A stretch of DNA of 64,000 nucleotides from positions 321,718,001 to 321,782,000 of the forward strand of contig OZ024741.1 in assembly GCA_964016885.1 (NCBI GenBank), read 5' to 3'. The stretch comes from Eledone cirrhosa. Taxonomy: Eukaryota. Below are positions 32,191 to 60,700 of this stretch, one piece after another. Every line of letters begins with the position of its first letter. Position 1 is the first letter of the stretch. The position numbers and the translations under genes are program-made. The notes below the pieces were generated by a model. That model saw only the letters and a list, made by a program, of their open reading frames with translations, ran no database searches and was not told the origin of the DNA.

Positions 32191-32272
32191 ACTTCCGGTA
32201 TAATTGCGGTTGTGCTGTTTAAGAAAATTTGACTGCGTGACTTCCTTTTTAGTATTGCCTCTCGGTTTAATT
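32191..32272 (+). promoter_or_regulatory. RPL7 promoter: ETS/GABP site, TCT/5'TOP start and non-coding exon 1
   Basis: ACTTCCGGT at 32191-32199, polypyrimidine CTTCCTTTTT at 32241-32250, and a GTAAGT donor at 32273. This is the typical ribosomal-protein promoter layout. Confidence 0.7.
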
Positions 32273-32624
32273 GTAAGTATATATCTTAACTCTATTTTAA
32301 ATCTGTTGTCATCTTTATCTATATAGGTAAAATTTCTTTCTAAACATTTACAAATGCATCCTATATCTTCAATTAATGTTATTGAACAGTTATTATTATA
32401 TATATCTCTTTATAAATTAAAAATTGACCGTTCAAAATTCATATCTGTATTACAACGTGGTGCTCCATGGTTGATTTTATTTCCATTAACACCATCGCCT
32501 AAAACCCGCTTTTGAACAATATTTGTAAATTATTCATGTCTTGATTTTATTTGATTTCTAAATTTTATAGTGTTTACATACTAATTGAATATTTTCTCTT
32601 TTGTTTTTCTATTTTCAGGACAAC

Positions 32625-35600
32625 ATGGTAGAGTAAGTATCTCTATTTTTTTTTTCATCATACGTAACTCTAACATATAATACCAGCTATTAATTTCTCA
32701 GTCTCTCTATCAATATATGCTTATTTTTAACAGCACACACACTTTATGTATTAAACCTTTAAACATATTTTGCCTCCAATCTAAAAAGAAAAAATCATTC
32801 GAAAAAGTGCTATCACTGATGTATTATTGAGAAGACACTTCCTTACACATAACTTTTCATGATAAAACTGGGACCCCTCTATATAAGACTAAAAAATCAT
32901 CCATTGTAGGCCATGTGTAAACTGTAAACATTACTTAATTATTTTTTATTTACGGGAATAATTTATAAAGGGCAATTTTGAAGCTTGTTATTAAATAGAA
33001 ATTCGTGTACAATTACGCGCACATGTTGCTATTAGATGATGGCGAGAAGAAATTCTCAGAATCATAAAGTGAAATGATGTTGGTGTCAATGATGTATATT
33101 CACGAAAATATTTTAATTATTTACCTTATTTGATCATTTAATATGTTTTGACCCACTGCAACCAAATGTCCAAACTGTCTTATTGGATAATATTAACCCG
33201 TATACAAAAGTGGGTTTCCATCACAATATATCTATCTCGAATAAATAAAATGAAAATATCTCGCTCGATTACCAGATTCATTTAATTTAACTCCGTTCAT
33301 ATAATACCTAGAAACACAAACACATATGCCGACCATGACTTTAATGTGTATATATATGGTGAATCGGACGGTATTTTCTTCATTCAAATTATATTGTCAA
33401 TAGTTATTGAAAGTGTCTTCAACGGTAACCACAGTATTTGAATTTGATCATGTGTGCTGAATGGACGCCCAAACAAGATGTATCGGTACTAACAGAATTA
33501 CTGTTTTACTGTTCCCACATGAGGATATACTTCAGTTTGTTTTAATAATTTTTTTTAAAATTAAAAATATAATTTTTACAGTTTATTAATTGCTTTGGTA
33601 ATCCTTATTTTAATATAGACACGTCCGGTAATATCCGCGGGAGCCATAAATAAATGTTTAGGAGAAAACCACTTAATTTTGGTTACAAGAATATATATTT
33701 TTCACTATATTATATCTTGTTTTGTAGTACACATCAATGCATGTGCAATTTGCACATTAGGGTTAAGTTTTCCTAGAAAAATAAACGTTGGAAGTGAGAT
33801 TAGTTGATAGCACGTGATAAAAACCCGAGGAAAAACATTTCTCACTGAATCATCATCATCATCATTTTACGTCCGCTTTTCCCTGCTTGCAAGGGTGGGA
33901 CGGGTCTTATTCAGCACAGCATCTCTCCACTCGTCACGGTCCCTCGTCATCTTCACCGTGAGCTTCAATGATCTGAGGTCTGTTCTCACCACCTCCGCCC
34001 ATGTTTTTCGTGGTCTACCTCTACCACGTCTTCCTTCAACTGGCATTTCCTGGCACTTCTTCACCCATCGGTCATCCTCCATGCGCATCACATGTCCATA
34101 CCACCTCAGTCTCCTCTCCCGTACACTACATTCTATCCCTCTCAGACACAGTTTCTCTCTCAACACATTTATGCTGGGTCGTTCACACACATTTACACTG
34201 CACATCCAACGGAGCATGCTTGCCTCATTTCTCTCCAGCCGTCGTATATCTTCTGCGGTAGCTGCCCATGTCTCACTACCATGCAGCATCGCGCTCCTCA
34301 CACAGGCATCATACAACCGGCCTTTCGTACGCAGGGAGAAACCCTTCTTCGTCAACAGAGGAAGCAGCTCCCTAAACTTCATCCAACCCGTCCTCATTCT
34401 AGATACTATGGCCTCGGAACACCCTCCTCCCATGCTAATCTGATCTCCTAGGTACCGGAAGCTATCCACCACTTCTATAGCGCCCTCTCGCATTTGAAAA
34501 ATGTGTCTATCAGTGCGACTTCTACTGTCTAATTTCCCTGTACATCTACTGCATACATATTTCTCCCTACCTGTTAGTTTGCCTGCTATCCCGCTACATC
34601 TCTTGTGTACCCAGGACCTACATTGTGTGCATTTTATAGAATTTATGCCAGTTCCTTTTCTGCATATCGAACATGGCCATTTCCCTGACGGAATCAGGGT
34701 TTTGTCCTCTTTTCTACTCATCAACACTTTTGTCTTAGCTAGATTTACTCTCAGTCCTCTTGCTTCCAACTGCTGTTTCCATAGCCGGAATTTATTCTCT
34801 AGCTCCTCTACTGATTCTGCCATAAGAGCCAGATCGTCAGCATAGAGAAGTTCCCATGGACAGCCAGTCTTAAACTCCTCTGTTATGGCTTGGAGGACTA
34901 TAATGAACAAGAGCGGGCTGAGGACCGAACCCTGATGTACTCCTACTTGTATCTGGAATTCCTCACTAAACTCCATTCCTACCCTGACTTTACTGAGAGT
35001 ACCTCTGTACAAAGTTTGCACTGTCCTTACAAGCCATTCCTCAACACCCAGCTTCCTTAGGGACCACCAGATGACAGATCGGGGTACCCTATCAAAGGCC
35101 TTCTCTAGGTCAACAAAGGCTAAGTATAGTGGCTTATTCTTCTCTAAGAACCTCTCTTGCATTTGTCTCACCAAGAAGAGGGCATCTGTTGTACTCTTCC
35201 CAGGCACAAAACCAAACTGCATCTCATCTAGTTTGACCCTTTCTCTAATTAGTTGTGCTAAAATCCTTTCATAACCTGATCTATCAGTTTTATACCCCTA
35301 TAATTGCTCCTCTCCAAAGCATCCCCTTTACCTTTGTAGCAATTTATGAGAATACTGCTGCACCAGTCTTTGGGTATGACACCACCATATATAGCCTGAT
35401 TGATGATGCGTGCAACCAGTTTAGTGCCTACGTCCCCTGATGCCTTCAGCATCTCAGCAACTATTCCCGATGGTCCGGCCGCCTTACCATTTTTCATTTC
35501 CCTAATCGCCTCTTGGACCCTATATTCGTCAATCTCAATAGCTGGTCCCTCTGTCGGATCTACCAAGGGTAATTTCTCTCTCTCCCATTCGTTCTCCACA

Positions 35601-38600: not shown

Positions 38601-41600
38601 GGAACTGGGGAATCGACAGGGGTGTTAAATAAATTTAGGAAGAGACTGACTTGCGGTCCGAATTATGACAAGTTAAAATCATTTAGTCGTCTATTTGTAC
38701 GCTTTAGTTACGTACACACATCTACACGTAAATACACAAACAGATATTGACAACAGAACCAAGGAGCTTGTGAAACACTATAGCGATATGTGTTGCATCC
38801 CATTAGGGTTTACCGGCTACGTAGCCTATTCGTAAATTTGCCGAATATATATTTTCCACTGTAATATATCTTGTTTTGGTCTATTTCAACTAAATTGTAT
38901 ATCTCAAAATGTGTATGGGTAGTTTTATGAGAAACAGCTGGGTTGGTCAGTACATGTGTATAGGGGAATGTGTACCAATATATGTAATTAACTATTGATT
39001 ACTAATATATTTAATATGCATTAACCACAAAGAATACAGTAAATGTAAAAATTATAAGACAAGGGTATGGACAAGGATATTAAATAAATAAATATATAAT
39101 ATAAAACATGAAAAATAGGGATAAAAAAAGTAAGTTGGTGTCCTAGATGTCTAATCATCATAATCTGTCAGTCCTGCCATTACTCAAGCAGGGCCCTTGA
39201 CTTCCAGATAAACTAGGGATTCTTCATATCCTGCGCTCTACCAACATTAGGAAGTTTTCATGTCTGGTATTGTTGAAGAGTTTTGTTTAGATTTACTACA
39301 GTTGAATGTCCTTCTAACTACTGACACAAAGACAAACCCCTTTGTCATGGTTTCGACAGCAAGTGCCTTACTTGCTGATAACCACATTACAGGGTGTACT
39401 GTGTGCATTTATCGCGGAACCAACACTAGAGGTTGTCATTGATTCAACTAAAACGGTGAGGTGAGGTATTGCTAAACGTGGAGAGATTTGACAGTATGGT
39501 GGGTGGGACTCCAACTGAGAGGTAGTTTGTATATAAATGTTTGTATTTTCAAAACAAATGTTCATTTAAATTTGGTTTGAAAGCTGATGCATTTAATGTT
39601 AACTTTCTAAATTTACTTTAAAATGTATATTTTCTCTTCTTTTTTTTTTTTAGGACAAAGAAAGAGTAAGTATTTTTATCATCTTTGTATTTTCTGCCTT
39701 TATCTAAATTGTTCATAATAGATCCTTTAGATCAATCTTCCTAAGAGAAGGAATATAAAATTCTGGGGAAGGAATCAAAATTGGGAAAGAATAGTGTACA
39801 ATGTGTATCAATGAAATACCAATATATCTGAATTATGTGAGGTCATGTATTAATAGCTCAATAAAAAAAAAAAAGTACAATCTTGATCTCCTTTGGGACC
39901 ATACAATTATTGAGGTTTGAAAAGCTTGATCATATTAATATGGTGTTTGGGTGAAAAATTACTAGATGATAATTCAAAATGTGGAGGAATGGGAAAGTTA
40001 TTGAGGAAACCTGGAATTGCTCGATCTTGGTCACTGAGAACCAATCCTGGTCTAGGTAGACACCTCTCCCCAGTGACTAGTACCAAAGTTTTAGTGGTTC
40101 ATTTTATGATCTGTGTTGCATAATACAATTGAAAGTAAATTTATGGACTACCCGAAAAAAGGTTCTCATTGCTTTAGATTAATTATAAATTATTTTATAC
40201 AATTTTGTGAAAGACTTGCTCAAATATTCAGCAACACGTTTTATATATATATATTTTCTCTTAATTTTTCAGCACTCCAAAGAAAACTGGAGAGTGAGTA
40301 TTTGTTTTATCTCATTAACCCTTTTATTACCTTATTTCTAATGAACGATCGGGGTGGGGGTGTGTGTGTGATTAAAGAAACCTACAATTGCAGGGAGGGA
40401 AATGTGACTTGGGTCACTGAGAACCGTTGGGTTTTATATGCAATACTATATAACCTGGTTTAGGTGAACTGCCAGTGACTGGTACCAAAATTTTGGAGGT
40501 CCTATTTTATGTCCTGTTTTGTTGTGTAATACAATTGAAAGTAAATTTATAACCACCTGAAAAAAGGTATCATGGCTTTAGATTAATTACAAATTACCAT
40601 ATATACTTATATATAAACTGAGAAATGTGACAAAAAAAAAATCTATGGTAAACGAGGTCAATATTTTGCTGATTTTCACCTTCAATTCTATGTAAATAAG
40701 GTGCTAAAATATCAAGTGATTATTTACCTATTGTACAGAATATGTATATCAAGTTCACTATAAAGCTTTAATTGGAGGTGAAATATATTTTTTCTATGGC
40801 TTTTGATGATTTGAAGGAATTAGCTGTCAGAAATTGTTTCTCGAGCTTTGGGCCACTCACCTAGCTTGAAGGTGAATATTACATCAGTTTCACTTTAAAG
40901 GTGAAATTTGTCTTATTGCTTTTGATGTATTGAATGAATACAGCCTTCAAAACGGTTGGAAATTCTTTTGTTAGTTAACTTATTAACCTATTATTAACCT
41001 ATTGGAGCAAGACAAGTGTAATTGTACCTGTACGATGTTAAGCCATTAGCATTTACATTATTCTATATTTACTAATGTATTTTCACAAACACTTTATTCC
41101 ACAAAATTATCTCACAATATCAAAGCTATGAGATTTTGATATTGATTTTGAGAACAATACCTAAGATAAGTATGAGCTGCTGGTTATGGTTGGTTTGCAA
41201 AGAAAGAGGTGAGAGAATTCTGGCAGGATATGGCCAGTTTAAATGCTAAAGGGTTAAATGGTTTCCAAGTTTTTTAAGACACACATTTAATTTGATGTCT
41301 ATACTAAATAGATATTTGTTACATTCATGAGATGGTGCTATTGTAGTCTGCTAAATAAAAAAAAAAGCAAAGTACTCCCAGCATGTGAGTGGTTGGAAGT
41401 AAACAAAAATTTGGGAAACTCATTGAAACTTTATCAAATTGAGGATGAAATGGTGAAACAAAAACTATATTCTAAATAACACTTAAACATTTTGAATAAA
41501 ACTTCATAAATATATTCTCCATTCATGAGAATTTCAAAACTGATCCTTCTAAACGTGTTAAGCTGTCTTGGGTTTAAATGTTTGAGTATATACAGTAACT

Positions 41601-44600
41601 TAGAATACAATCTTGTAAAAGACTTTTTGAAATGTTCAGTAACATGTTTATATTTTATTAATTTTTCAGCACTCCAAAGAAAACTGGAGAGTGAGTATTT
41701 GTTTATTGACGTTTTTATTGACCCTTTTATTACTTTATTTCTAATGAAAGACGGAGGGAGGGGTGATTAAGGTAACCTACAATTGCAGGGAGAGGAATGT
41801 GACCTGGGTCACTGAGAACCGTTGGGTTTTATATGCGATATTATATAACCTGGTTTGACTGGTACCAGTTTTAGTGGTCGCCTATTTTATGTCCTGTTTT
41901 GTTGTGTAATACAATTGAAAGTAAATTTATAACCACCTGAAAAAAGGTATCATGGCTTTAGATTAATTACAAATTGCCATATATACTTATATATAAGCTG
42001 AGAAATGTGTGACAAAAAAAAAAATCTATGGTAAACGAGATCAATATTTTGCTGATTTTCACCTTCAATTCTATGTAAATAAGGTGCTAAAATATCAAGT
42101 GATTATTTACCTATTGTACAGAATATGTATATCAAGTTCACTATAAAGCTTTAATTGGAGGTGAAATAAATTTTTTCTATGGTTTTTGATGATTTGAAGG
42201 AATTAGCTGTCAGAAATTGTTACTCAGTTAACAATGAGCTTTGGGTCACTCACCGTGTTTGGAGGTGAATTATACTCAAGAGGGTTATCAATTTTATTTG
42301 TTTGTAATTACTTTAATTTTCTGTGCAGACTTGAAATTTTGTCAGATGTTTAAATAACTATAATTTACAATTATATATTTTTACCTAATTTTTTTTGTTA
42401 AATTTGACTTTTATGGTCAGGTGAAATTAATTAACAGGTGTAAAAGTAATAACTTTATGGATAAACACAAAAATTTAAACTTTATCTGCCTTACTTGTTA
42501 GATTTGTTGCAAAAAAATCCAATAATGATCTAGATGCTGATTTCCATCAATTCTAGCAGTTTTCCGAACAGGTGAATTAATTAAAAATGCAGGTGTAATC
42601 AGTACAAGGTTTTAGTCTTTCTCTACATTCCAGGCAAATATTTTCATTGAAAAAAATGTATAAAACCTTTTCACCAGTCAAAATAATATTGGCAATGTAC
42701 TCTTACACAATGTACGGTGTAAAATTACGTAACAGAATGTTCCCAATATATAAGTTCATTAACAGGTGTGATGCAGGTGTGACACAGGTGAATGCAGGTG
42801 TTTTTGTATATGTGTTCTAATATATTTTTAAAATATTGTTTTCAATATTGTCAGACAATATTTCTATCGTGCCCAAAGCACCCTTTACATAATGGCACTT
42901 TGCAAAAGGAACACATAAATAGGGTTTGGATTGCGTAACCTTTAAGTTTTTCTCTTTTGCAAAGAGCACAATCGGCAAACCTTCCTCCTACCATCAATTC
43001 TCTCCACTTTGTGAAAATCAATATTTCCTTTGTGGACCACTGCTAATTTTGATTTTTTCCCAGCTTTGTGTTTGCGAGAAGTATATCCTCCACGTAGCTG
43101 GGATGCAATGTCCACGCGAAACTTCATATGACAGTAGTCCTTTGGTGGTGGCGGATCCTTGTGGCTTTTAGTAAATACAATAAAAGAATTCACAATGGTT
43201 AAATTCAGTAAAAACCACAAGATGTATCTCCACCATTTGTTTCTTGGGTAATAAGCACAGTACTGGTCAGATTTGTCAACCCCACCCATATATTTATTGT
43301 AGGAGAGGTTAACTAAAGGTCTACCCTCAGCCCCAACACCTGATTGTTGGTTAGAACTCAGGAACAAAATTTGTCTTTGAACACTGTGGCTAACATGTTC
43401 TCTTTTTGCATTTGGAGAATGTCCCCTCTGTTTTTCAGTTTCGCAACTTTTATTTCTTGGGGTAGTCCTTTCCGATTGCTCATTATTGTGCCGCAGGTGT
43501 ATGTATTTACAAGGGCAAGATCCTCTGCTAAAAGCACCGAAGAAAAAAACGGTCAAAATAAATGTCTATGTTGAAAGTGGAAGGGTTGAGTCAGCGACCA
43601 CACAACATCGTAACACAACCCATGTTTTCTCTCTCTGTTATGTTTTTTTCCTGTGTAAACATCAAAGTTTACACAGTATCCTGTGTCCGATTCACACAGT
43701 TTCCACACTTTGATGCCCCATTTGGTGGGTTTAGCTGGCATATACTGTCTGAAATGAACCCTACCCTTATACCCAATCATAGCTTCATCAACACTAAGAT
43801 TTTTTCCAGGTATATACACACTTTAAAATTTTTCTAACATTTCAATTAATGGTCGTACTTTGTACAGTGGGTCGTAATTTGATTCATTTCTACCAGGGGC
43901 ATTTGAAGTATCAACCAGATGCAAATACTGGTTTAATTTGATGAATCTCGTTTTTGCCATAATACTAGATATATAAGGGTTACCAAACCTTATATCAGTA
44001 CTCCAATAATTCCAGTCGTGGAAATTGTTTAATACCAAACATAATATTTATGGTAAAAAACGCTTTCATTTCGGCAGAATCTGTCGGACGCCATAACAGA
44101 TCGGGTTTTCCGATATTAGAAATCTGTTGTTGTGCATAGCGATTTGTATCTTCTGCCACAACTTCGAAGAAAGTTTGTGGTAAAAATAAAAAAAAATAAT
44201 CCAGTGCTTTAGCATCGGGTGGTAATGTGTGTTGTGGTCCAGTATTTTCAGTAAAATCCGAAAGATGTATCGGTGTGGTTTCTTTCAACCACGTTGGTGT
44301 CAGTTATATCTTCGCTTTCACTTTCAAAGTGACTATCATCATCATCATCAGATATATCAGAAATAAATATATCTGATTCGTTCGAAGATAAATCACAAGA
44401 TATTATCTTCTGTTTCTTTTTGATCTCGAATGTCGTCGGATGTAAAACCTTCAAATTCGTTGTCGCTACTTTCGGAAGCCATGTTATACTTTCAACGTTA
44501 AAAACACGTGTTATCGCCAGTTCTTTGACTATACTAAGAGTTAATTTTCGCGCGTAAGGGCTTTATCTCGCAGTAATCTCGAATTGATGAGATTTCAATG

Positions 44601-47600
44601 ATGTCGATGTTTATTTTTAGGAGATCTCCGTGTAGTATTAAATGTCGGTTTGAATAAATGAAAGGAGGCATAATCTTGTCGGTTTGAATGCTAAAGGGTT
44701 AAAGGTGAAATTTGTCTTTCCTATTGCTTTTGATGTATTGAGAATGAATACAGCCTTCAAAACGGTTGGAAATTGTTTTTTTAGTTACTTGGGGAACCTA
44801 TTAGAGCAAGACAAGTGTAATTGTACCTGTACAATGTTAAGCCATTAGCATTTACATTATTCTATATTTACTAATGTATTTTCACAATAAACACTTTATT
44901 CCACAAAATTTATCTCACACAATATCAAAGCTATGAGATTTTGATATTGATTTTGAGAACAATACCTAAAATAAGTATGAGCTCTGGTTATGGTTGGTTT
45001 GCAAAGAAAGAGGTGAGAGAATTCTGGCAGGATATGGCCAGTTTAAATGCTAAAGGGTTAAATGGTTTCCAAATTTTTTAAGGCATACATTTAATTTGAT
45101 GTCTATACTAAATAGATATTTGTTACATTCATGAGATGGTGCTATTGTAGTCTGCTAAATAAAAAAAAAAAAGCAAAGTACTCCCAGCATGTGAGTGGTT
45201 GGAAGTAAACAAAAATTTGGGAAACTCATTGAAATTTTATCAAATTGAGGATGAAATGGTGAAAAAATCATTACATTGTGAAACAAAAACTATATTCTAA
45301 ATAACGTAAACATTTTGAATATTAAAACTTCATAAATATATTCTCCATTCATGAGAATTTCAAAACTGCGCCTTCTAAATGTGTTAAGCTGTCTTGGCTT
45401 ATACATTGGGTTTAAATGTTTGAGTATATACAGTAACTTAGAATACAATCTTGTAAAAGACTTTTTGAAATGTTCAGTAACATGTTTATATTTTATTAAT
45501 TTTTCAGCACTCCAAAGAAAACTGGCGAGTGAGTATTTGTTTATTGACGTTTTTATTAACCCTTTTATTACCTTATTTCTAATGAAAGACTGGGGTGGGG
45601 TGGGGGAACCTACAATTGCAGGGAGGGGAGGAATCGCACAAGAAGAATGAGACCTGGGTCACTGAGAACTATTGGGTTTTATATACGATACTATACAACC
45701 TGTAATACAATTGAAAGTAAATTTATAACCATCTGAAAAAAAGGTATCATGGCTTTAGATTAATTACAAATTGCCATATATACTCAGATATAAGCTGGGA
45801 AATATGTGACAAAAAAAAAAATCTATGGTAAACGAGATCAATATTTTGCTGATTTTCACCTTCAATTCTATGTAAATAATAAGGTGCTAAAATATCAAGT
45901 GATTATTTACCTATTGTACAGAATATGTATATCACATTCACTATAAAGCTTGCATTGGAGGTGAAATATATTTTGTCTAAGGTTTTTGATGATTTGAAGG
46001 AATTAGCTGTCAGAAATTGTTTCTCCATTAACAATGAGCTTTGGGCCACTCACCAAGTTTGGAGATGAATATTACATCAGTTTCAATTTAACCCTTTAGT
46101 GTTCAAACCGGCTGCAATTATTTCCTCTTCATTTATTCAATCCAGCCGATAACAACCATACTAAAATATTTTTCTAAAAATAAACAATAGCGCCATCAAA
46201 ATCTCGTCAATTCGAGATTACTGCGAGATTTAGACCCTTACCACGAAATTAACATAGTGAAACAACACGTTTGTTTAACGTTGAAAGTAGAACAGATTTT
46301 TTTTGTGTATCAACATTGGGTTTAAATTTTGAGTATATACAGTAACTTAGAATACAATCTTGTAAAAGACTTTTTGAAATGTTCAGTAACATATGTTTAT
46401 GTTTTTTTTTTATTTTTCAGCACTCCAAAGAAAACTGGGGCGTGAGTATTTGTTTTATCTTGTGTTTATTGAAGTTCTTTAACCATATTTCTAATGAAGC
46501 CGCTGGGGGAAGAATTGGGGAAACCTGGAATTTTAAAGGAAGGAATGAAGACCACTGCTTTAGATTATTACACAACCTGGTTTAGGTAAACCCCCAGTGA
46601 CCGGTATGAAAGTTCTAGTGGTCCATTGTTAGTTTTGTCCTACTGTGTCACATAATACAACTGAAAGTAAATTATAATTTAATGACCACTTTTGGACTGT
46701 GTTCCACAGGACTTGTGATATATTCTGCATGTGTATGGGATTGATGGACAGCTTCTTGTTGCCTTGAAATCTCTATATGAATGCCCTAGTATTTGTTTTG
46801 AGATGGTGCTGAGTTGAAAACATTCAATTTGAGTGTCAGATTCCGCCAATGTGTATACTGTCACCTCTCCTATTCATAATGTTCATTGACGTGTGTGCAA
46901 CCAGGATGGAAGTGGTATCAAGACCGACAGGTGTAGAATCAGTCTGCTGGAATTTGCAAGCGTTACTATTTAACTCACCAGATGTGATCTCGGACATGCA
47001 CTCAAGAAGCATTTGGAGAAGTTTCAACTATTTTGGAGCCATTTTGATGAGGCAGGGGGCTAAAGTGAATGCACAGATTCCAGTAATGCGCTAGCTTCAG
47101 CATTCCGTCAGAAGGGAGGTAGGTGTAAAAGCCCAGCTCCCTATCTTCAAGTTGGTGTTAGTGTCACTTATCTATGGTCATGAATCTTGTGTAATGACTA
47201 AAAGAATACAAGAGCCGGAATTGGGTACCTCTGAAGGATCTTTGGAGTAATGTTATTCAATAGTGCATAAGCTTGGAGATCTAAGAGCTGCTACTCCGAA
47301 TTGAGATCTCCCAGCTCCAGACATGTAGGCAGAATACCTAAGGAAAGAAGCGCTGGGAAAAATCAACTGGCAGGAGACCCAGGGCTAGACTTGAATATAT
47401 CTAGCTGGATCAACTTGTGACAGTTGCTCCAAATGACCCCCCCCCCCCCCCCCCCCCAGGAATAAGTAGGTGACAAAAATGGATTACCTAAAAAAAAATG
47501 TCTCATTACTTTAGATTAATTACAAATTGTTTTATACAATTTTGTGAAAGACTTGTTGAAATATTCAGTCACATGTTATTTATATATATATATTTTTGAA

Positions 47601-50600
47601 TTTTTCAGTGCTCCAAAGAAAACTGGAGAGTGAGTATTTGTTTTATCTCATTTCTATTGAAGTTTTTTAACACTTTATTGGAAACAATCCAAAATTTGGA
47701 GTGATTTAGTAATATAACTAACTTTCTGATTAAGTTGTTTGGATTTTAATGAAGGTTCTTAAATAAATTTATGAACAGTTTTAAAATAAACTTAGTTGTG
47801 CTACTGTGTTGCATAATACAATTGAAAGTAAATTTATAATTTATGGATAAATTTATATAATCTTGTGAAAGAATTATTGAAATATTCAGCAACGTATGTT
47901 ATATATGTATATTTTTTCTTAATTTTTCAGCACTCCAAAGAAAACTGGAGAGTGAGTATTTGTTTTATCTCATGTTTATTGATTTTTTTAACCCTTTTAT
48001 ATTATCATATTTCTAATGAAAGATTGGGAGAGGAATTGAGACCTACAAGTGTAAGGAGAGGAATGTGATTTATGAATAATGTAACCCGGGTCACTGGGAA
48101 CCACTGCTTTAGATCTGATACTATATAACTTGGTTTAGGTGAACCACCAGTGACTAGTTTTAGTGGTCTCCAAAATTTGGAGGAATTTAGTAATAATATA
48201 ACTAGCTCGTGTTTAGAGCATAACTTAACAAACAATTCTATTGCTGAACCAAGGACAGTTTCAAGTGGTTTGTTATTAAATGGGTTAAATAAAACTTCAT
48301 TTGAAAGTACAATATTTATATATAGGAAATATTAACCTATAATTTCTCTTGTATACCTTTTATTTAATTAATGATTCGCACAGCACTCCAGTGTGTGATG
48401 AGATCATGCATATTGTAGGAATAAGAAAGCATCGTTAGTCATCATTTTATGCCAGTTTTCTGTGCTGGCATTGGTTAGATGGGTCATCACAGTGAGAGAA
48501 CAAGTTAGATAACTATCATGCTCATACATTTCATATTTTGGCATGGTTCTATGACTGGATGCCATTTCTAATGCTAACCACTTCTGTACTAGGTGATATT
48601 TTATTATGGCACTAGCACTACCATTTACAGAGTGTCCTGACTGCATTTTATCATGTCATGTCCTCAGCAGGCCTGAAGAGTCGTCCTCTCTGTATTATAT
48701 TGTCTCCATTGCCTGTTACTTTACAAAGGGTACAGATTATATTTTAATATTACTGATTTATGATTATAAAAATATGTCTACATCATGTTCATGTATGAGT
48801 AAATGCAAAGTGTCCCTGGAAGTGGAAAAAATAACATGGTGTTAACAATATAAAGTATTTTAAATAAATGTTTCCCTCCAGTATGTAATAATTACTATGT
48901 TAATATTCCAATTAATGTTATATTATGAAACTAATGAAAATATCTTTTTTCTTTTCTAGGAAAGTTGTAAAGAAAGTTGTAAAGTAAGTATATTTGAAAT
49001 CTTTATAACACATTCTTTTAAAATCTTAGAATATTTTAATATAGTTTGAGATAATACCATTCATCATAATTTTAGAAAGAATTCTTTATTATAGAATATT
49101 TCTGGATACCATTAGTTATAAAAGCAGCTTTATGCTTAGTTCTGAGACCAAATTGTTAATGAAATTGTGTAGGCAGAAACTGTATGGAGGTTCATCAGTA
49201 ACTGGAATTCAGAGGTGCAACTTGGTTAGACACTGTCATGCTGGTTCCAAGTGTGTATGTCTGGAATTCTAAGGCATTTTGCTCAAATTTACATTATTAC
49301 AGTGAAGTCATTAAGTTTTAATGTGATGCAGCCATAATATTGTTTTGTGCTTCTCAATATCTTGCTAATTTGGTTTCATGTGGTACAGGACGTTAAATTA
49401 AAAGATTTCAGTCTTTTTTGTTCACTTTAATATTTTAAACATTTATTTCAACTGTAAGATGTCGATGATTAAACAATATTTCATGTTCTTTCAGGAAACA
49501 AGTACCGAAGAAGCCGTGAGTATAAATATCTATAATGAAACTAGTGCAGTGTATTGGAAGTATCAATGTTTTTCTTAACTGATTGTTTACTTCATGAAGT
49601 TTTTTTTAGTATTTGCACACCAGTGATAGATGTTAGGTTTATTTACGTTATGATGTTTCATTAAATATTTATATGTAAGTCAGTGGTCCAGCATGGAACG
49701 AAAGAATACATAATTTGAAGCAATTTTCATTCTAAACTCTGCGGCAACACAGCTACTGTTTTGATGTCATACACACGTGTTGCTCTGCAGTAAATTTGAT
49801 TTTAAAATAATTTTGCTCAAAGCATTGAGTGTGCCATTTAAAGGTTGGGAACAATTAGAGTTTGTTTGGTATGAAGCTATCATAACAGCTCTATTTACGT
49901 ATCTATTTGGCACTCATTGAAGGAGCATCTTAGTAAATCGTCTTTTACTTTTTCACTTGAGAACACCTAATCCATTATTTTCTTAAAAATTATACTTTCA
50001 AATCAATTGATTTTTCTCTATTTCAATATCGCTCTTGTATAATTAAGTGGTAAAATCTTAAGTTATAGTTATTATAGGTTAGTGTACCATTTAGTAGAAT
50101 TACAAATATTAGCACAGACAACACTTCTGCACATGTTCTTCACAAAATTACCTGATCCCAACCCTCAAAGTCTTTGTTTATCAACTTTATTGTCCATTGT
50201 TGATAGTTTCAATAGATTCTTAAATTCCAACTGATCTGTGTGGTCAGTTCCAACATGTGTATTAAAGTGTCTTTACATATAATATAATGCTGCAGTGACT
50301 TCATCAAGGAAGGGTCTGTATTCGAACTGCTTGCTTGGTGGATAAACTTGCACAACCCACAGACGTATCTTTCAGCCTCAGCTTCAAGAGGCAAATCCTC
50401 CCTCCCAATGGTGTCCAGTCCATATCACATTCTGACAGTTGGGTGCTTGTGAGTATCTCCACTCCAGTCATTTCTGGTGCTATACAGTGTACAAGTATAC
50501 AGTGCCAGGGCCACAGAGCTTTGTTCAGGAAACCCTGACTATATCCAGCCAGTAGCACCTAGCCTCCATTAGTCCTCTTTACCTGCAAGGGTTGTGATGT

Positions 50601-53600
50601 TCCAGATTCCAATTGTCATGGTTTGTTCTCTTTAGGCTCTGGATCTGCCAGTTTTTACTGGTACATTCAAAATCCTGCAAAGACTAGGCTTTTTAGAGGC
50701 TCTTGACTTGCCTTGTCATATCTACATCACTGGGTTGTGAGAGGTTTCTTGGGAGCTACAGGTATTATCCATTGCTCCATCTCCCCTAGTAGTTGGTCTG
50801 GGGTTACTTATTCGTCTGGCAGCTACCCACTTATATTGTAACTAACCATCATATCTGGTGGTCGTATCACATTCACCTGTGAATTGTCTAGCAGAACAGC
50901 TTTGCCGAGAAGGATAGTTAGTTCTCCAGTCATCCACAGATGATTTCAAATCATAATATTTTAACTTCTCATGTGATATATTTTCAATTTTTCAGGGTTG
51001 TAAAGAAAACTGCAGAGTAAGTATTATTTCGTTATTATTAAGTGTTGCTGTATTTTATCGAAAATGTGTTTTAACCCTTTAGTGTTCAAATCGTCCGCAA
51101 TTATTTCCCCTTCATTTGTTCAAACTGCCTGAAACTGGCCGATAACATCCAGACTAAAATATTGTTAAAAAAATAAACAATACCATCATCAAAATCTCGT
51201 CAATTCGAGATTATTGCGAGATTAGGCCCTTACTGCGAAAATTAACACTTAAAACGTGTTTTTTTAACGTTGAAAGTAGAAAAGATTTTTTGTGTATCAC
51301 ATGGCTTGTGAAAGTAGCGATACCGACTTTGAAGGTTTTACACACGACAGCATTCAGAATAAACAAGAAACACGATAATATTAGTGATTTATCTTCAAAT
51401 GAATCTGATGTTTATATTTCTGAAATTTCGTCTGACGATGATTGTTTTGAAAGTGAAAACGGAGATCTCCAGGACGCCATTTAAAATATTACAGCAACGT
51501 GGTTGAAAAATACCACACCAATATATGTTCCCGATTTTATTCAAAATACGGTCCGCAACACACATTAGCTCCCGATGCTAAAGCACTGGATTATTTCTTT
51601 TTGCTTTTACCGCAAACTTTCTCTGAAGTTGTGGCAGAAGAGATTAATTGATATGCCCAACAACAGATTTCAAATCGAGGAAAACCCGATCTGTTTGGCG
51701 ACCGACTGTTGCTGCGGAAATGCAAACCTTTTTTACCATAAATATATTCGGTATAAAACAATTTCCAAGACTGGAATTACTGGAACACTGATATAAGGGT
51801 TAGTGATCCTTATATATCAAGTATTATGCCAAAAAACAACATATTTCAAAACAATCATCGTCGGACGAAATTTCTGAAATATAAACATCAGATTCATTTG
51901 AAGATAAATCACTATAATATTATCGTTTGTTTCTTGTTTATTCTGAATGTCGCCATGTGTAAAACCTTCAAAGTTGGTATCGCTACTTTCATAAGCCATG
52001 TTGATAAAAAGAAAAAATTGTTGTACTTTCAAAGTTAAAAAAACACTTGTTGTTTTAAGTTGTTTCACTATATTAAGTGTTAATTTTCGCAGTAAGGGCC
52101 TAATCTCGAATTGACGAGATTTTGATGATGGTTTGTTTATTTTTAGAACGATTTTTTAGTGTGGGTGTTATCGGGTGGTTTGAACAAATGAAGGGGAAAT
52201 AATTTCGGGCGGTTTGAACACTAAAGGGTTAAACATCTGCTGACAAAATTTCAAGACTGCACATAGAAAATTACAATTGATAACCCTCTTGAGTACGATT
52301 AACTGAAAATAATGTGAACAGATAAACATGACATCTGACAAATTAATGTGAATGCTAAAGGGTTAATCAAATTATTTAAAACTTTTTGATACCTAAAACT
52401 GACTTTGATTCTATGTTACAAAGCTGATATTTTAACAACTAAAGGTTCTTACATAAATCAAAGTTTGAGTTATTGTTTCAAAACTACTCTAATTGGAAGC
52501 AAATTTAGTGATATTTAGATTTTGTTTCAATCTCATCATATATGGCTTAGTTGGTATGTTAAACTGTTTTAACCTTTTAGCATTTACATTACTCTGTAAT
52601 TTACTATTGTATTTTCACAGTACACACTTACCTCACATAATATTGAATCTACAAGATTTTGATATTTACTTAACATAAGTATGAGCAGCCAGTTATGGTT
52701 GGTTTGAACTGAAAGAAGTGAGAGAATTCTGGCCAGATATGGTTGGTTTAAATGCTGAAGGGTTAAAGTATCTTCTTTTCATTTCTGAAGCCAGCGGAGC
52801 ATTGAGTTGCTGAGCATGCTTTATTTCATGTTGCTTTTCATAATAGGACTGGCCCCTTATCATGAAAAAGAAAAACACCCAGAGAAACCTTTTATGAGAT
52901 GTAATCTCATAGGTCAGCTGAACCTGCATGGGTTTAGGACTTCAAAGATTTGTATACAAGATTTTCAATAGAATTGAGTATGTATAAAACATGCATTTTA
53001 GGAAAATAACATAGTTTGGTATTATGAACAAAGCTAGATTCAGTGTATTGACAACTCATTTGGTCGGATGCCATGCTTTGGCGCATGGAGATACGGGCTT
53101 TGCCTTTCATCCTTATAGGTCGATAAAATAAAGTACCAGTAATGTACTGGGTAATTGCTGGCCTTCTGCCAAAAGTAGAAACAATTATTTTAACTGAAAT
53201 TTAAGAGATAAATATATATTGGTAATAATTTCACAATTACTGTATTTCATATTTACAAAACAATAGATTTGGTGGTGCTTCAGTAGTAGATATTGCATTT
53301 TCAGTTATAAAATATCTAATTAACATTTCTTTACTTTTTCAGGAAGAAGACTGTTAAGAAAGCGTAAGTAGTTTTTAAATTAAAATAGTACTATTAAAAA
53401 TAGATATGGAAAGTATTTTTATGTTTACATTAGAATTTAATGTTTTCAATGTAATATTGGAAGGTGGAATATTAAGATAATTTTTAAAACAAGTAATGAA
53501 TATATATATATATATACAAGAAATTATGCTTAGATAAGCAGTATTATATATATATGTAAAGGCATGTGGTTTAGTGGTTAAAGAGTTGATTTGCAACTGT

Positions 53601-54218
53601 GAGGTTGCGAATTCAATTCTCAGACTGGGTGATGCATTGTCCTTGAGCAAGACTCTTTATTTCATGTTCTTTCTGTCAGAAGATAGTATCAGCAAAGGAA
53701 ACATTGTTTCCTTGGTTCGATTTGACGGGGCCCACCCCACTCAGTAAGCAAATGAAGTCTGGGATCTTGTTGATCTAAGCATATTTTTTTCTATATATAT
53801 TCAATTATCTATATAAATAATTTATTTATATACATGTGTATATGGAAGTGCATGGGTTATTGATTAGGGTGTTTGGCTCACAATTGTAAGGCGGTGAATT
53901 CAATTCCCAGCTATGCAACACACTTTATTTCACATTGTTCCGGTTCATTCAGTTGTATCTGTATTGTCACACTGAATCTGAGAATTACATTAGTTCATGA
54001 GCACAGCTGTTCAAACATCTAAAGCATTTGTTAGAACTGATAGGATTATACGTGTGTGTGTGTATATATATGTTTGTAAAAGGTTAACAAATAACAACAC
54101 AATTGGTACACTATATAGAAGGGATATATTCGGTTAACGCTTGATATAACAGGAAGAGGGTCTTAACGTTTCGGACGCTAGTCCTTCATCAGAAGAAAGA
54201 ATGAGAAATAAGATAGAT

Positions 54219-54249
<31 letters not shown>

Positions 54250-54505
54250 AGCCAACATATATACAGGTTATTTACATTAGTTGGACATGGGTACAAAAGA
54301 TATTAGCAATATGTCATAAGCGTTTAAAAAAAGCATGTGTAACTAGTCTTGCTCATGCTGTATGTGTAGAAAGACAAACTACCTCTCTCTCTATATATAT
54401 ATATTCACACATTCATTTTCTTGCAATATAGCTGACATTTTAGCAAAAAAAGTTGATTTTTTTTGCTAAGCTTCTCTAAAATTAATAAATGAATGTACTT
54501 TTATT

Positions 54506-54538
<33 letters not shown>

Positions 54539-54631
54539 GGTGTCCCAAAAGAATGTATACACAGTTTGATTACCTATGTAGGCAATATTTATTAGAATGC
54601 TGTTGAAGTGTGTATACACTTTGAGACGCCC

Positions 54632-54703
<72 letters not shown>

Positions 54704-57700
54704 AAATGATTTTAATTGAAGTATATATTTTTCAATGTTAGTATTTTATTTTTTCAGGCCTCCCAAGAAGATTGTAGAGTGAGTATTATCCTGCCTTCAT
54801 ATATGGTGAAATAATCTTTTTATCAATATTGAATTTCATTATATCTGAACATAATATACCTTTCCATACAAAGAGTATGGAAAGGATATCTTGCTACAAT
54901 CAGTTGCAGTTATGAATATCACTAAAATACAATATTTAGTTTATATATTGCTGCTTACAATGCACAGGGATATAGATATAAATTATTCATGTTGTATTGT
55001 AAAAGATTTTATTTGAAATGTTGATAAATATAGTTTTTTTAATTTTTCAGGGCAGTCAAGAAGACCGAAAAGTGAGTATTATCTTTTCTTCATATTGAGG
55101 CATAAATATAACAATAACTGATTATATTTTATTACTATTGATATTCTCTCTCTCTAATGTCTGTGTCTGTTATAAAGAATAATAATCATTTTACATCTGC
55201 TTTCCATGCTGGCATGTGTTGGATGGATTGTCACACTCTGAGACAAGGCAAATATCTAAGCACCCTCATCTCACTCATGTTACATAATTTGTATGGCTTC
55301 TATAACTGGATCCCATTCTTAATGCCAACACTATAGCCTCCGGTCTCCACAAATATATTGTTTAATCAATATTAGTGTGATTTATTTGCATTGTTTCATT
55401 TCATACTTTGCATTATATGAGATCAATGAAACATCTACTTCCATTAGAAAGGCACACCATTGCAATGTATTTTTAACAATATATTTGCTGGCTGCAGGGG
55501 GATGAATCTGTTTTAGGTGCTTGGAGGGATGATCTAATTTTTTTATCTTTTGCGAAATATTTTCTCATCAAATTAACAGTGCATAGTATATATGTATTAT
55601 GCCGTTAATTATGGTATCTATGAGGAGGTGCTGAAAAGTTTCTGGCTTTGGGTAAAAGAAAATATAGGAGAATCAGTTATGATTTTATTCAACATATTCC
55701 CCATACATTCACACACTTATTGCAGCAGTCCTACCTCCCCTATAAAGATAAACAACTCAATCCTTTTGTGGTACCCTTAAAGCCAGGAACTTTTCAGCAC
55801 CCTCTTGTATATTATCTTTATAAATTTTTCAATATTTAATTTTTAATTTTCAGGACTGTAAAGAAAACTGTTGTGTGAGTATTTTGTTTTATCTTATATT
55901 CTAAAGTTAAGCCTAATCAAACATTCCACCCTGTCCTTTTTAGGGGCTGTGTTTAAGAAGACATTATCCAATATCTTTTTTCATTAAGGTGGTAGAAATA
56001 GTTTAAATACATTGGTGGTTATTACTAGCAGTTGAGGTGATCACAAAAAGGCTTTCTCTCGTGTTCATATAGAGTGGAATGAAAAAAATCAGTTCTAAAT
56101 TCTATCATATATACGTGAATATAAGCCAACCCCTATTTTATGTCTAAGAAATGGGCAAAAGTATTAGCTGAGACAGCTAATCAACATATGTTCAGATAGC
56201 ATAGTTTTGAAATTCTTATCTTAAATTTGGTATTTGTGCCAACCCTATGATCATGGATCTTGGGTAATGACTGAAAGAATATGATTGCGTATATAATTGG
56301 CTGAAATGGAGTTAACTTGAAGATCAGGGAGCTGCTACTTCTCCAAATTGAGAGATCACAGCTTTATGGGCATGTAGTTAAAATGTCTCAGGAAAGAATT
56401 GCTGGACAGATTTTACAGGCAAAACCAACTGGCACGTGACCCACGGGTACACCCAAGCAAAGTGGTTGGATAACATCCATGTGCTTGGCTGGTCTCGCTT
56501 TGGGATTCAGCTAGATCAATTGGAAACTATTACTTATGACAGCCCCTGCTGGAAGGAGTGTCTGAGGACTCTGCTCCCATGACCATCTCGGGAATAAGTG
56601 GCTGAAGAAGTGGAATATACTTACATTTTCATATTTAAAATGTTGTAAGTGTTGTATAGCTTTTGTTTAAGAACTCCATTATGTGATTATTTTTTTGCCA
56701 ATTTCCTACTTGTTTAAAGGCCATATTCATTCGAAACAAAAAACAGGAAATGCATATTTCATGTTGAAAGTGAAGCCGGTGTAACTTCAAAGTGAAAATA
56801 TTTTACCACCTGATTTCAGCAGGATTTGAAGTTAGTGTAAATCAACAAAATATTGATTTCGAGTATAGGCTGACCCCATTTTTTTTTTTTTTTTTCTTTT
56901 ACCTTCCCATATTTCTTGGCTTGTATATGAGTATATACAGTAAGGCTTTTAGCATTTACATTACTCTATATTTACTATTGTATTTTCATAGTAAACACTT
57001 TATTTCTCATAATATTGAATCTGTGATTTAAAAAAATTATTTTGAGAACAATGTCTTAACACAAGTATGAGTGGTTGGTTTGAACAGAAAGGTGAGAGAA
57101 TTCTGGCCGGTTTAAATGGTAAAGGGTTAAAATCAAGCTTATATATAGCCTATATTTCTAAATCATATTTCTTTCAAGTCAATGATTTAAGTCCCAAAAT
57201 AATATTTTTTTTTGTTTTTAGTTAACTTCTTGACCATTCTAATGTTATTAGTAACACACATACAATTGCTGCAAACTGGTTTATGTTGCCTGTCTTGTTC
57301 CTTTCAAGTGTGCCCCTACATGACCCAACCTTTTGATCACACTTTAATTTCTACTTCTACTGACATTAGAAATATTAGTATCTATTTAGTATTATATTAA
57401 AACTGAAATATTCTCTCAGTAATTGCTGCAGATGATTACTAATTATGTCTTAATTAAAAATATTAACATGAATATTTATTTTTAATTTTTCAGGACTGGA
57501 AAGATATCTATGAAAGAGTAAGTATTTGTTTTATCTTGTTGACAAATGAAATAGGAGGATAATAATGGTAGTGGGTGATTATATATAATGTTGAAATAAT
57601 GTATGTAATACTTTATATAGCATGATATTCATTGTTGATTTAAGTTTGTTACAATTTGTAAATTCCATTAAAATATTCTTTTTTAGATTCCATCATTCTC

Positions 57701-60700
57701 TGTGTGGAAATTAATAAAATATTTTTTGGTTTTCAGTGAGAAAAAAATCCGTAAAGTCCCTGAAAGTCTCTTGAAGAAAAGGAAAACCAGGAAAGCTCAG
57801 GCTCTCAAACGAAAGGCTACTGTTCTTCGGAGAAAAGTTGTAAGTATTTGATATATTTTGTGAGTTTATTAATGAGTTGCTTTGTCATCTAACCATTTTT
57901 ATCAAATTGGATATTGATATTAAAATATCAACCCACCCAAAAAATCACCTATTATAGCTTTAAAATTGGACAGAAGTCTTATCTGGTAGATAATATCAGA
58001 TTTCAGTAGTTTAACCTTTAGCGTTCAAAGCGACAAAAACCGACAAAATTATGTCCCCTTTCATTTATTCAAACCGACAAAAACCGACATTTAATACCAC
58101 ACGGAGATTTCCTTCTAAAAATAAACATTGACATCATCGAAATCTCGTCAATTCGAGATTACTGCGAGATAAAGCCCTTACGCGCGAAAATTAACTCTTA
58201 GTCTAGTTAAAGAACTTGCGATAACACGCGTTTTTAACGTTGAAAGTGTAACATGGCTTCCGAAAGTAGCGACAACGAATTTGAAGGTTTTACGTCCGAC
58301 GACATTCGAGATCAAAAAGAAACAGAAGATAATATCAGTGATTTATCTTCAAACGAATCAGATATATTTATTTCTGATATATCTGATAATGATGATAGTT
58401 ACTTTGAAAGTGAAAGAGAAGATTTGACTGACACCATTGAAAAAATAGCAACGTGGTTGAAAGAAACATTCTATACATGTTTCGGATTTTACTGAAAATA
58501 TTGGACCACAACACACATTACCACCCGATGCTAAAGCACTGGATTATTATTTTTTATTTTTACCACAATCTTTCTTCGAAGTTGTGGCAAATCGCTATGC
58601 ACAACAACAAATTTCTAATATCGGAAAACCCGATCGGTTATGTTGTCCGACAGATTCTGCCGAAATGAAAGCGTTTTTTACCATAAATATTATTTTTGGT
58701 ATTAAACAATTTCCACGACTGTGGAATTATTGGAGTACTGATATAAGGTTTGGTGACCCTTATATATCTAGTATTATGGCAAAAACGAGATTCATTAAAT
58801 TAAACCAGTATTTGCATCTGGTTGATACTTCAAATGCCCCTGGTAGAAATGAATCAAATTACGACCCACTGTACAAAGTACGACCATTAATTGAAATATT
58901 GTCAGAAAAATTTAAAAGTGTGTATAAACTTATATATTGGGAACTTTCTATTACGTAATTTTACACTGTACATTTACAGAGTACATTGCCAATATTATTT
59001 TGACCGGTGAAAAGGTTTTATACATTTTTTTCAATGAAAATATTTGCCTGGAATGTAGAGAAAGACTAAAACCGTGTACTGATTACACCTGCATTTTTAA
59101 TTAATTCACCTGTTCAGAAAACTGCTAGAATTGATGGAAATCAGCATCTAGGTCATTATTGGATTTTTTTGCAACAAATCTAACAGATAAGGCAGATAAA
59201 GTTTAAATTTTTGTGTTTATCCATAAAGTTATTACTTTTACACCTGTTAATTAATTTCACTTGCCCATAAAAGTCAAATTTAACAAAAAAAATCAGGTAA
59301 AAATATATAATTGTAAATTATAGTTATTTAAACATCTACTGACAAAATTTCAAGTCTGCACATAGAAAATTAAAGTAATTACAAACAAATAAAATTGATA
59401 ACCCTCTTGAGTATAATTAAGTGAAAATAATGCGAATAGATGAACATGACATTTGACAATTCAATGTGAATGCTAAAGGGTTAATTAAGTTTTTGTAGTT
59501 TGAAATAAAAGAATCCTATTGTACCTGAGGGTGTCCATAGGAACAAAAAAGCTGGTGTATAAAATTTGTTTATAAAGTTAAATGATTATTACTATATGAA
59601 TGTGTAGCAACATAAGGAGTTTTCAGTTTATTTACGCTCATCCCTACTACCAAGTGTAATGGTTATTATGGAAAGAAAATACCGTATTTGTAGCATATCA
59701 TTTATTAAAAAAATTTATACTAAACTACTTCCACTAGTGCAATGGGTTGGCATTTTCTTGTCCAAACTATTTTCAAATGGAAAATGTAATTTACAGTTAA
59801 CACCTTTGTAAATTTAACTGCCCTCCTATGAGGTTCTAACAAGTAGTTTCTTGTGTATTTTTTATAAGTGCCAAGTCTAACGATCAAATCCCTAGGCCAC
59901 TGGCCATCACTTTATTTTATTATAGTTTAACATTTTTTCCCATTTCCTAACAACTTGAGATAGTGGAGTGATCCAGTAACAAACTCTTTCTTTTCAGCTG
60001 CGTAAGAAGAAGAAGATTAGCATTTTCCATCGAGCTGAGAAATATGTGAAAGAGTACCGCATGCAGGCACGTGAGGAAATCCGGCTGCGACGTGAAGCTC
60101 GCAAAGCTGGAAATTACTATGTTCCTAGTGGTGCTAAACTGGCTTTCATCATGAGAATCAGAGGGTATGTTACTATATAATAATTTTCTCTATTTTTTAA
60201 CATTTTGAATACCAACCCACTTAAAACTGTCATAGATTTGTGAAACAAAATCATTTTAAAGGATTTCTAGTTAAATTGAAACCTAACATAATTTGGCATG
60301 CACATTTTTTAACGTTGCTTTATAAATGCCATCTTATAATAAATTATAATGAATCCCTCGAATACTTCATTAAGTAATTGAATTACAGTATATTTCATTA
60401 AAATGGTGGTCATGAAAGGGCTAATCATTTTGTTCTATCATTTGTAATGTCACTCTGGACATGGTTTTATATATGAAAACTGCCAAAATTGAAACTTATA
60501 CATCTTGTGTATCAATCTAAATCTGTTGAAAGGTTCTATGAGCTTAATATTTTCTCTACTGTTGACAGATTGAGGAGCCAAAACTATAATGAAATAATGT
60601 CTCTATATTTACCCATAACATCTTTACTAGTGTACAGATTTCATGTTTGCACAGAACATGAACATTTGCAGTAATATAGTAAAGAATTTAATTCTTAATG

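Follow-up and report, generated by a model that had tools for sequence, protein, structure and literature searches.

Histone H1-like terminal tails are known from the insect ribosomal proteins L22 and L23a (N-terminal, Drosophila) and RPS6 (C-terminal, mosquito), in which they are lineage-specific, Lys-rich, about 100 to 170 amino acids (aa) long, and variable in length, and the mosquito RPS6 tail stays on the ribosome (PMC1934995, PMC548281). Microexons that alter the terminus of a core ribosomal protein occur in human RPS24 (PMC11162997), and arrays of very small symmetric exons occur in the schistosome micro-exon genes (MEGs; PMC4350168). In troponin T, a hypervariable N-terminal segment on a conserved core is encoded by small exons with lineage-specific additions, including seven avian P exons (Tx) (PMC5062619). 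Here we describe the RPL7 gene, encoding ribosomal protein uL30 (L7), of the octopod Eledone cirrhosa, in which 15 symmetric microexons (m1 to m15) encode nearly all of a 107-aa Lys-rich N-terminal tail. The window, to which coordinates refer unless otherwise stated, is a 64,000-nucleotide (nt) stretch of contig OZ024741.1 (positions 321,718,001 to 321,782,000).

The uL30 tail resembles the insect extensions in being long, Lys-rich, lineage-specific, and variable in length between species, but these belong to other proteins in another lineage, and the uL30 tail is Val/Thr-rich and Ala-poor (5 of 107 residues). The mosquito S6 tail lies wholly within exon 3 (PMC548281), whereas the uL30 tail has one exon per repeat unit. 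A sequence-only reading of this stretch had held the array to be without precedent in core ribosomal proteins. RPS24 qualifies that claim, although its three tissue-regulated microexons are not a symmetric array: they measure 3, 18, and 22 bp, are unrelated to one another, and have been shown to be regulated by tissue, in contrast to 15 symmetric duplicates encoding 104 residues in uL30 (PMC11162997). Schistosome MEG proteins have a signal peptide, are secreted, and are mostly microexon-coded (PMC4350168), whereas uL30 is an intracellular housekeeping protein. By inspection, its N-terminus is charged and contains no hydrophobic stretch that could serve as a signal peptide, and with only ~30% of its coding sequence in microexons it is not a MEG member. 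By architecture, the nearest analogue appears to be the N-terminal array of troponin T. The variable region of troponin T is acidic or His-rich, whereas the uL30 tail is basic, and troponin T is a muscle protein with demonstrated developmental splicing. In neural microexons of the Srrm4/eMIC type, a weak 3' splice site is accompanied by a nearby UGC motif; TGC occurs within 30 nt upstream of none of the 15 uL30 acceptors, all of which are strongly T-rich, and the array lacks this mark of the neural type.

Neither uL30, RPL7, nor an extension appears in the available main text of the preprint behind the octopus ribosome entry PDB 9EHO (PMC13321053), and RPL7 is unmentioned in the available portions of 10.1101/2024.12.24.630263, 10.1101/2022.06.24.497555, and PMC10230085. 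We came across no account of either the tail or the array in the literature, with most subscription journals and all supplements outside the scope of the search. The microexon-array design in a core ribosomal protein is apparently undescribed; the long protein itself is already in RefSeq and the PDB. N-terminal repeats of 12 residues, variable in number, are reported from rat, mouse, and human L7.

A splice-site scan of positions 32600 to 57800 recovered exactly the 15 exons that the sequence-only reading had proposed, with the same places, sizes, splice sites, and 2-2 phases (Table 1). They span 39654..57517 (17.9 kb), comprise one exon of 12, twelve of 21, and two of 24 nt, all in phase 2, and in every case a T-rich YAG acceptor precedes the exon and a GTRAGTA donor follows it (15/15). 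When joined by script, the ATG exon, the microexons, and five conserved exons form a single open frame of 348 aa, to which the microexons supply 312 of 1,044 coding nt (~30%). The tail contains 36 Lys, 18 Thr, 14 Val, 10 Pro, and 5 Ala residues (net charge, +25) and, as that reading had also maintained, runs in frame into L7 and takes the protein far beyond its usual length (243 to 245 aa in 11 bivalves and gastropods). The motif YYTYTYAG-N9..27-GTRAGT has 13 matches in 39600-57600 but none in 1-32000 or on the entire minus strand, and its mean count in 200 mononucleotide shuffles was 0.095 (maximum, 1). A position weight matrix (PWM) trained on these very sites, and hence not an independent test, gave no candidates on the minus strand. 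These motif and shuffle counts, together with the spliced joints described below, rule out chance or artefact as the origin of the array.

The exon at 59998-60162 matches Ribosomal_L30_N (PF08079; E value, 4e-17; 62.7 bits against a cutoff of 31.6), with PF00327 scored on the orthologue rather than on the E. cirrhosa protein, and a search of the 3.0-Gb genome with the last exon gave a single match (one of three candidates). The locus is a single RPL7/uL30 gene, intact and expressed, of an octopod. Positions 32241-32272 are probably a noncoding first exon of the 5' terminal oligopyrimidine (5'TOP) type; the pyrimidine-tract start at ~32241 presumably corresponds to the 5'TOP/TCT-like leader typical of ribosomal protein genes.

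Evidence for splicing came from Logan contigs of four sequencing runs (X1 to X4) placed on 40200-60199; none of the runs is on record as RNA, and the tissue of X4 is unrecorded. Among the 15 joints listed for X4 are ten GT..AG joints, nine of them at the 16 array junctions and the tenth at 57839 to 59998. Five have a depth of 2,392 (40293 to 48960, 48983 to 49495, 49515 to 50996, 51016 to 53343, and 53363 to 54758) and five a depth of 2,877 (54778 to 55051, 55071 to 55854, 55874 to 57494, 57517 to 57737, and 57839 to 59998), and intron pieces in X4 have a depth of ~3 to 10. All ten joints have a count of 0 in X1 to X3, runs that are flagged as incompletely counted. From the spliced joints we infer that X4 is RNA. 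In this sample m8 to m15 and one TPKKTG-type exon are spliced serially, and the exons appear to be part of the dominant message. The sequence-only reading's expectation that the microexons are included in RNA was thus borne out for this part of the array; the junctions from the ATG exon to m1 and from m1 to m2 fell outside the analyzed stretch, and five junctions (m2 to m7) are not among the joints listed. A processed pseudogene is an unlikely source of the spliced contigs, given the single genome match of the last exon and the absence of the joints from three DNA-like runs.

The joint from 40293 to 48960 is not evidence of a five-exon skip, because the 21 nt of m2, m3, and m7 are the same and 31-mers recur across m1-m4 and m6-m7, so that the repeats force a contig to start there and the start can be placed on any copy. 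Two unbroken X4 contigs reach from an m7-type exon to the second conserved exon, breaking at m12. A contig of depth 9.5 (54758-55351) begins exactly at m12 and retains both downstream introns. At this break, the spliced and intron-retaining contigs both extend 8 letters farther upstream, and G is the first letter of the next exon as well as of the intron; the break is therefore explained by a partly spliced precursor branch and not by a skip. The precursor contig also hints at 5'-to-3' ordered removal of introns in the array.

Table 1. Exons of the E. cirrhosa RPL7 gene (positions in the window)
Feature	Size and type	Position	Strand	Basis and remarks
Noncoding first exon, putative		32241..32272	+	By sequence; pyrimidine-tract start, then GTAAGTA donor
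ATG exon	14 nt, 8 coding, phase-2 end	32619..32632	+	By sequence; related cephalopod proteins start MV(A)E
m1	12 nt	39654..39665	+	Splice-site scan
m2	21 nt, TPKKTG type	40273..40293	+	Identical to m3 and m7; exon of this sequence joined to m8, copy ambiguous
m3	21 nt, TPKKTG type	41670..41690	+	Flanking introns 87-90% duplicates
m4	21 nt, TPKKTG type	45508..45528	+	Youngest m3 duplicate; flanks 99% and 94% identical to those of m3
m5	21 nt, TPKKTG type	46421..46441	+	Splice-site scan, genome search of module
m6	21 nt, APKKTG variant	47609..47629	+	Splice-site scan, genome search of module
m7	21 nt, TPKKTG type	47931..47951	+	Most likely true donor of X4 joint to 48960
m8	24 nt	48960..48983	+	Spliced in X4, depth 2392
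m9	21 nt	49495..49515	+	Spliced in X4
m10	21 nt	50996..51016	+	Spliced in X4
m11	21 nt	53343..53363	+	Spliced in X4
m12	21 nt	54758..54778	+	Spliced in X4; also first exon of depth-9.5 intron-retaining contig
m13	21 nt	55051..55071	+	Spliced in X4, depth 2877
m14	21 nt	55854..55874	+	Spliced in X4
m15	24 nt	57494..57517	+	Spliced in X4
First conserved uL30 exon	103 nt	57737..57839	+	X4 joints, core comparison
Conserved exon, Ribosomal_L30_N (PF08079)		59998..60164	+	Profile match; X4 joint 57839 to 59998
Conserved exon		60847..60984	+	Frame; X4 loose end at 60164 reads into exon
Conserved exon		62072..62181	+	Joined frame
Last exon		63039..63265	+	Stop TAG 63245-63247; AATAAA 63260-63265

The introns between m1 and m8 are paralogs of one another, with 65 to 94% identity over local blocks. 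Apart from one piggyBac-like insertion, the m3-m4 intron duplicates the m2-m3 intron, the two matching at 87% (605 nt) on one side of the insertion and at 90% (823 nt) on the other; the m3-m4 and m4-m5 introns are 94% identical over 370 nt, and older pairs are 65 to 85% identical. By these comparisons, the six TPKKTG-type exons evidently arose by tandem exon-plus-intron duplication. The exons m10, m12, m13, and m14, which share 9 to 16 of 21 bases with m2 to m7, are probably older copies of the same type, and m9 and m11 share only 3 to 6. A mobile module is ruled out as the source, with all six genome matches of the TPKKTG exon and its splice sites falling inside the array.

Duplication also bears on what the structure of the array can say about its use. 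Tandem duplicates stay in frame only if they are symmetric, which accounts for the 2-2 phases and the lengths divisible by 3; because such symmetry is expected from duplication, it needs no selection for alternative splicing. Pairing every upstream exon end with every downstream start gives sense codons in 136 of 136 cases, in agreement with the sequence-only reading. A phase-2 stop requires an exon ending in TA or TG, that is, Tyr, Cys, or Trp codons, and these residues are absent from the E. cirrhosa tail and number 0 or 1 in six related tails. With symmetry traced to duplication and stop-free joins to codon content, the 2^15 combinations to which that reading had appealed carry no weight as evidence for combinatorial splicing. 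The identity of m2, m3, and m7 at 21/21 positions amid flanks at 0.69 to 0.87 (random pairs, 0.61 with the same aligner; P ~0.005 to 0.01 per pair, the pairs being nonindependent) hints weakly at purifying selection.

A tree built from 27 L7 cores places E. cirrhosa as sister to Argonauta and two Octopus species (support, 100/99), and two JGI proteins (295 and 341 aa), which probably belong to other cephalopods, join the octopod clade with support of 100/99. Lys-rich tails of ~40 to 107 aa with spaced KK pairs are present in six of six sampled cephalopod-clade members, whereas all 11 bivalve and gastropod L7s in the tree lack a tail (243 to 245 aa). Excluded from the tree were two 297-aa molluscan L7 entries (P0128 and P0191), whose leaders hold few Lys (5 and 8 in 62 residues). 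Cephalopod cores are 80 to 92% identical, but the tails are barely alignable across genera. The number of residues ahead of the PE[ST]xL anchor is 113 in E. cirrhosa, 87 to 108 in O. sinensis, 106 and 60 in the JGI proteins, and 46 in Argonauta, against a median of 16 among the 186 of 242 fetched proteins that have the anchor and a start Met. A 7-residue periodicity is seen in E. cirrhosa (0.41), Octopus sinensis (0.33), and O. bimaculoides (0.35), whereas in Argonauta the peak is at 8 and in the JGI tails it is at 5 to 6 or broadly at 7 to 9. The TPKK motif occurs five times in E. cirrhosa and once in each of three related tails (in one by a looser pattern). No H1 Pfam match was found on the two related proteins scored. 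In the search for further cephalopod sequences, shorter proteins yielded 7 matches, and the 37 loci obtained from a metagenome scan include none above 76% identity.

The closest comparison is with the O. sinensis orthologue (XP_029640698.1; PDB 9EHO chain F), a protein of 343 aa with a 7-residue periodic tail and a core 92% identical to that of E. cirrhosa over 235 aa but a different tail sequence. The entry for chain F lists the 343-aa sequence, a listing that does not reveal which residues were resolved. In the AlphaFold model of this orthologue, residues 1 to 102 are coil, almost all with predicted confidence scores (pLDDT) below 50 (~36 to 43 over residues 1 to 100), and the helix after the tail scores ~80 to 92; the model as a whole is weak (mean, 56.8). 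RefSeq isoforms X1 to X7 of O. sinensis L7 (343, 336, 336, 335, 328, 322, and 322 aa) represent five distinct proteins, the shorter ones missing 7, 8, 15, or 21 residues as blocks of 7, 8, and 14. Because these block sizes are those of 21- and 24-nt exons, they suggest the same exon architecture and some skipping in O. sinensis, exon structure beyond the E. cirrhosa genome being read from protein block differences only.

Tails have also grown on L7 outside the mollusks. L7 proteins of Timema stick insects (P0107, P0222, P0251, and P0252; 306 to 330 aa) have an independent Lys/Pro-rich tail with an 11-residue period and, in T. douglasi, 4 TPKK motifs, and Bemisia L7 (P0100; 292 aa) has an independent Lys/Pro-rich repeat tail. 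Judged from the proteins, these insect tails are convergent expansions of the same terminus.

The uL30 N-terminus contacts the rRNA expansion segment ES7L (PMC10281867), and joint growth of tail and expansion segment has been suggested for insect L23a and D7 (PMC1934995). In three full copies of E. cirrhosa ribosomal DNA (rDNA), the ES7L/D2 span measures 616, 625, and 597 nt, with motif-based boundaries at conserved anchors and genomic lengths that might include insertions processed out. Published ES7L lengths are 232 nt in Caenorhabditis elegans, 340 in Drosophila, 352 in Aedes, 473 in zebrafish, 690 in mouse, and 876 in human (PMC9561286, Table 1). In one rDNA copy, 18S rRNA is 2,876 nt long against an Rfam model of 1,831 positions, and large-subunit (LSU) rRNA is 6,342 against 3,401. 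The cephalopod lineage is reportedly already known to have its own rRNA break. The rDNA unit was located at L069:74-2949 (18S) and L072:271-6612 (LSU), G000:C12 at ~25.07 Mb; expansion-segment length varies among rDNA copies, and 29 5.8S matches are spread over at least 9 contigs.

We tentatively favor, with not quite even confidence, the explanation that the tail is a flexible H1-like polycation that coats or neutralizes enlarged surface rRNA, is mostly constitutive, and was built by exon duplication. A short Lys-rich exon between phase-2 introns, just after the ATG exon, would have been copied repeatedly with its flanking intron; only copies of the same phase and with lengths in multiples of 3 would keep the frame, and units would be gained, lost, and diverge fast between species. 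The paralogous introns show such copying from m1 to m8, and the remaining exons may have the same history. Near-perfect splice sites would make inclusion the default, so that most messages would bear the full tail; m8 to m15 are included in one sample, and the same is presumed for m1 to m7. Minor skipping and allelic copy-number variants would be tolerated in frame. With the uL30 N-terminus lying on ES7L at the back of the 60S subunit, the +25 tail could coat or neutralize the extra rRNA; it might also aid nucleolar import and assembly, and its five TPKK motifs may be phosphorylation switches.

Several observations weigh against this explanation. The ES7L comparison has no molluscan control (bivalve or gastropod), and in mammals the scaling is opposite, a human-type L7 of 248 aa going with an ES7 of 876 and a 270-aa chain, which we take to be that of mouse, with one of 690. 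The Argonauta tail is only ~41 aa, compared with ~100 in Octopus, the poor alignment of tails between genera fits drift, and the RefSeq isoforms of O. sinensis lose blocks. As for constitutive inclusion, Logan contigs lose rare variants and bubbles, and a single spliced sample was seen.

The tail may instead do nothing specific, duplications at a solvent-exposed N-terminus simply piling up in a large, repeat-rich genome and in-frame, spliceable copies being kept only since defective ones would harm an essential gene. We consider such neutral growth unlikely, although the poorly alignable tails (~41 to 107 aa) on cores 80 to 92% identical, the independent repeat-built tails of Timema and Bemisia, the LINE and piggyBac-like insertions in the introns, and the tolerance of yeast ribosomes for fly L23a with its tail (PMC1934995) all fit it. 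It sits less well with the persistence of Lys richness and spaced KK pairs in all sampled cephalopod-clade tails, with identical exons amid diverged flanks, and with the lack of a comparable array at L23a or L6 in the same genome. An extraribosomal role, in which TPKK phosphorylation would control the binding of free uL30 to chromatin, PARP/poly(ADP-ribose), or nucleolar RNA, seems very improbable. The H1-like tails of fly L22 and L23a are PARP interactors, L22 copurifies with H1 (PMC1934995, PMC548281), and TPKK recurs in related tails and in Timema, but its count differs between octopods (5 versus 1).

If exon subsets were skipped by tissue or stage, 60S subunits would carry tails graded in length and charge, a reading that we regard as quite unlikely. 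In its favor are the 7-, 8-, 7+8-, and 7+14-aa tail blocks by which O. sinensis X1 to X7 differ, an Argonauta entry titled isoform X1, the in-frame, stop-free state of all 136 junctions, the tissue-regulated microexons of human RPS24 (PMC11162997), and the alternatively spliced N-terminal exon array of avian TNNT3 (PMC5062619). However, the RefSeq models are predicted, X2 and X3 give the same protein, equal in length to that of O. vulgaris, and mismapping or an allele lacking one copy would account for them equally well; isoform labels alone mean little, since tail-less Mytilus L7 also has X1 and X2 entries. The splice sites are uniformly strong, no skip is found among the 15 X4 joints listed, and two unbroken contigs run from the m7-type exon to the second conserved exon. 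The combinatorial skipping envisaged in the sequence-only reading is therefore unsupported by the one spliced run, in which m8 to m15 follow one another in series. Its most elaborate form, a 15-step microexon rheostat producing tissue-specific 60S subunits whose tail length, charge, and TPKK sites are matched to a parallel-evolved, vertebrate-sized ES7L, is likewise distinctly doubtful.

The surroundings of the array were also surveyed. Scans of 80 kb at L23a and 70 kb at L6 in the same genome revealed no comparable array, weak matches numbering 3 versus 4 and 2 versus 2 (gene versus opposite strand), with the PWM built from RPL7 sites and the L23a start codon unlocated; by these two genes, microexon arrays are not a habit of every ribosomal protein gene in this genome. 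An RPL22 match at G000:C1:228867655-228867973 (minus strand) is intronless, with a frameshift and a stop; it is probably a processed pseudogene and is uninformative on arrays, and the search that gave it did not recover an intact RPL22 gene. No small nucleolar RNA (snoRNA) was found in the introns by Rfam over 31500-64000 (E ≤ 1), a search that lineage-specific snoRNAs could escape, and the three low-complexity microRNA-model matches there all lie under the gathering score; the reading of the array as a snoRNA host has no Rfam support and is rejected. The duplicated introns share, at paralogous places (including ~40025-40070, 40410-40470, and 48090-48160), a short inverted repeat, GTCACTG...CAGTGAC, and an AT-rich block that is conserved. 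The repeats had no Rfam match, and the pair could be inherited sequence or a splicing element. Elements of piggyBac-like type (DDE_Tnp_1_7) and ends resembling those of miniature inverted-repeat transposable elements, with TTAA, are present in four introns (~42240-44700, 46088-46290, 51071-52370, and 58011-59485). A near-complete long interspersed nuclear element (LINE; 33867-36925, minus strand) with an endonuclease, a reverse transcriptase, and a PHD-like match in its second open reading frame (ORF) lies antisense within the intron between the ATG exon and m1, and kindred fragments occur at ~20100-24000. Upstream of the gene, positions 11098-13751 hold a reverse-transcriptase-bearing retroelement, and 1-32000 otherwise contains only repeat-type ORFs of at least 120 aa.

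Arrays of this kind are easily missed by gene annotation and short-read mapping. The present one illustrates how an essential ribosomal protein can gain a 100-residue appendage exon by exon, and it links the growth of a protein to a measured enlargement of the rRNA on the same surface (ES7L, ~600 nt). Across cephalopods, tails of ~40 to 107 aa form a natural series for probing the role of H1-like ribosomal tails. An octopus ribosome cryo-electron microscopy map and an in vitro translation system exist (PMC13321053), and tail function is therefore directly testable. Since the frame survives whichever of the microexons are left out, the gene offers a clean test of the idea of specialized ribosomes, and if the rheostat reading were true, it would be the first case of ribosome specialization through combinatorial splicing of a core protein.

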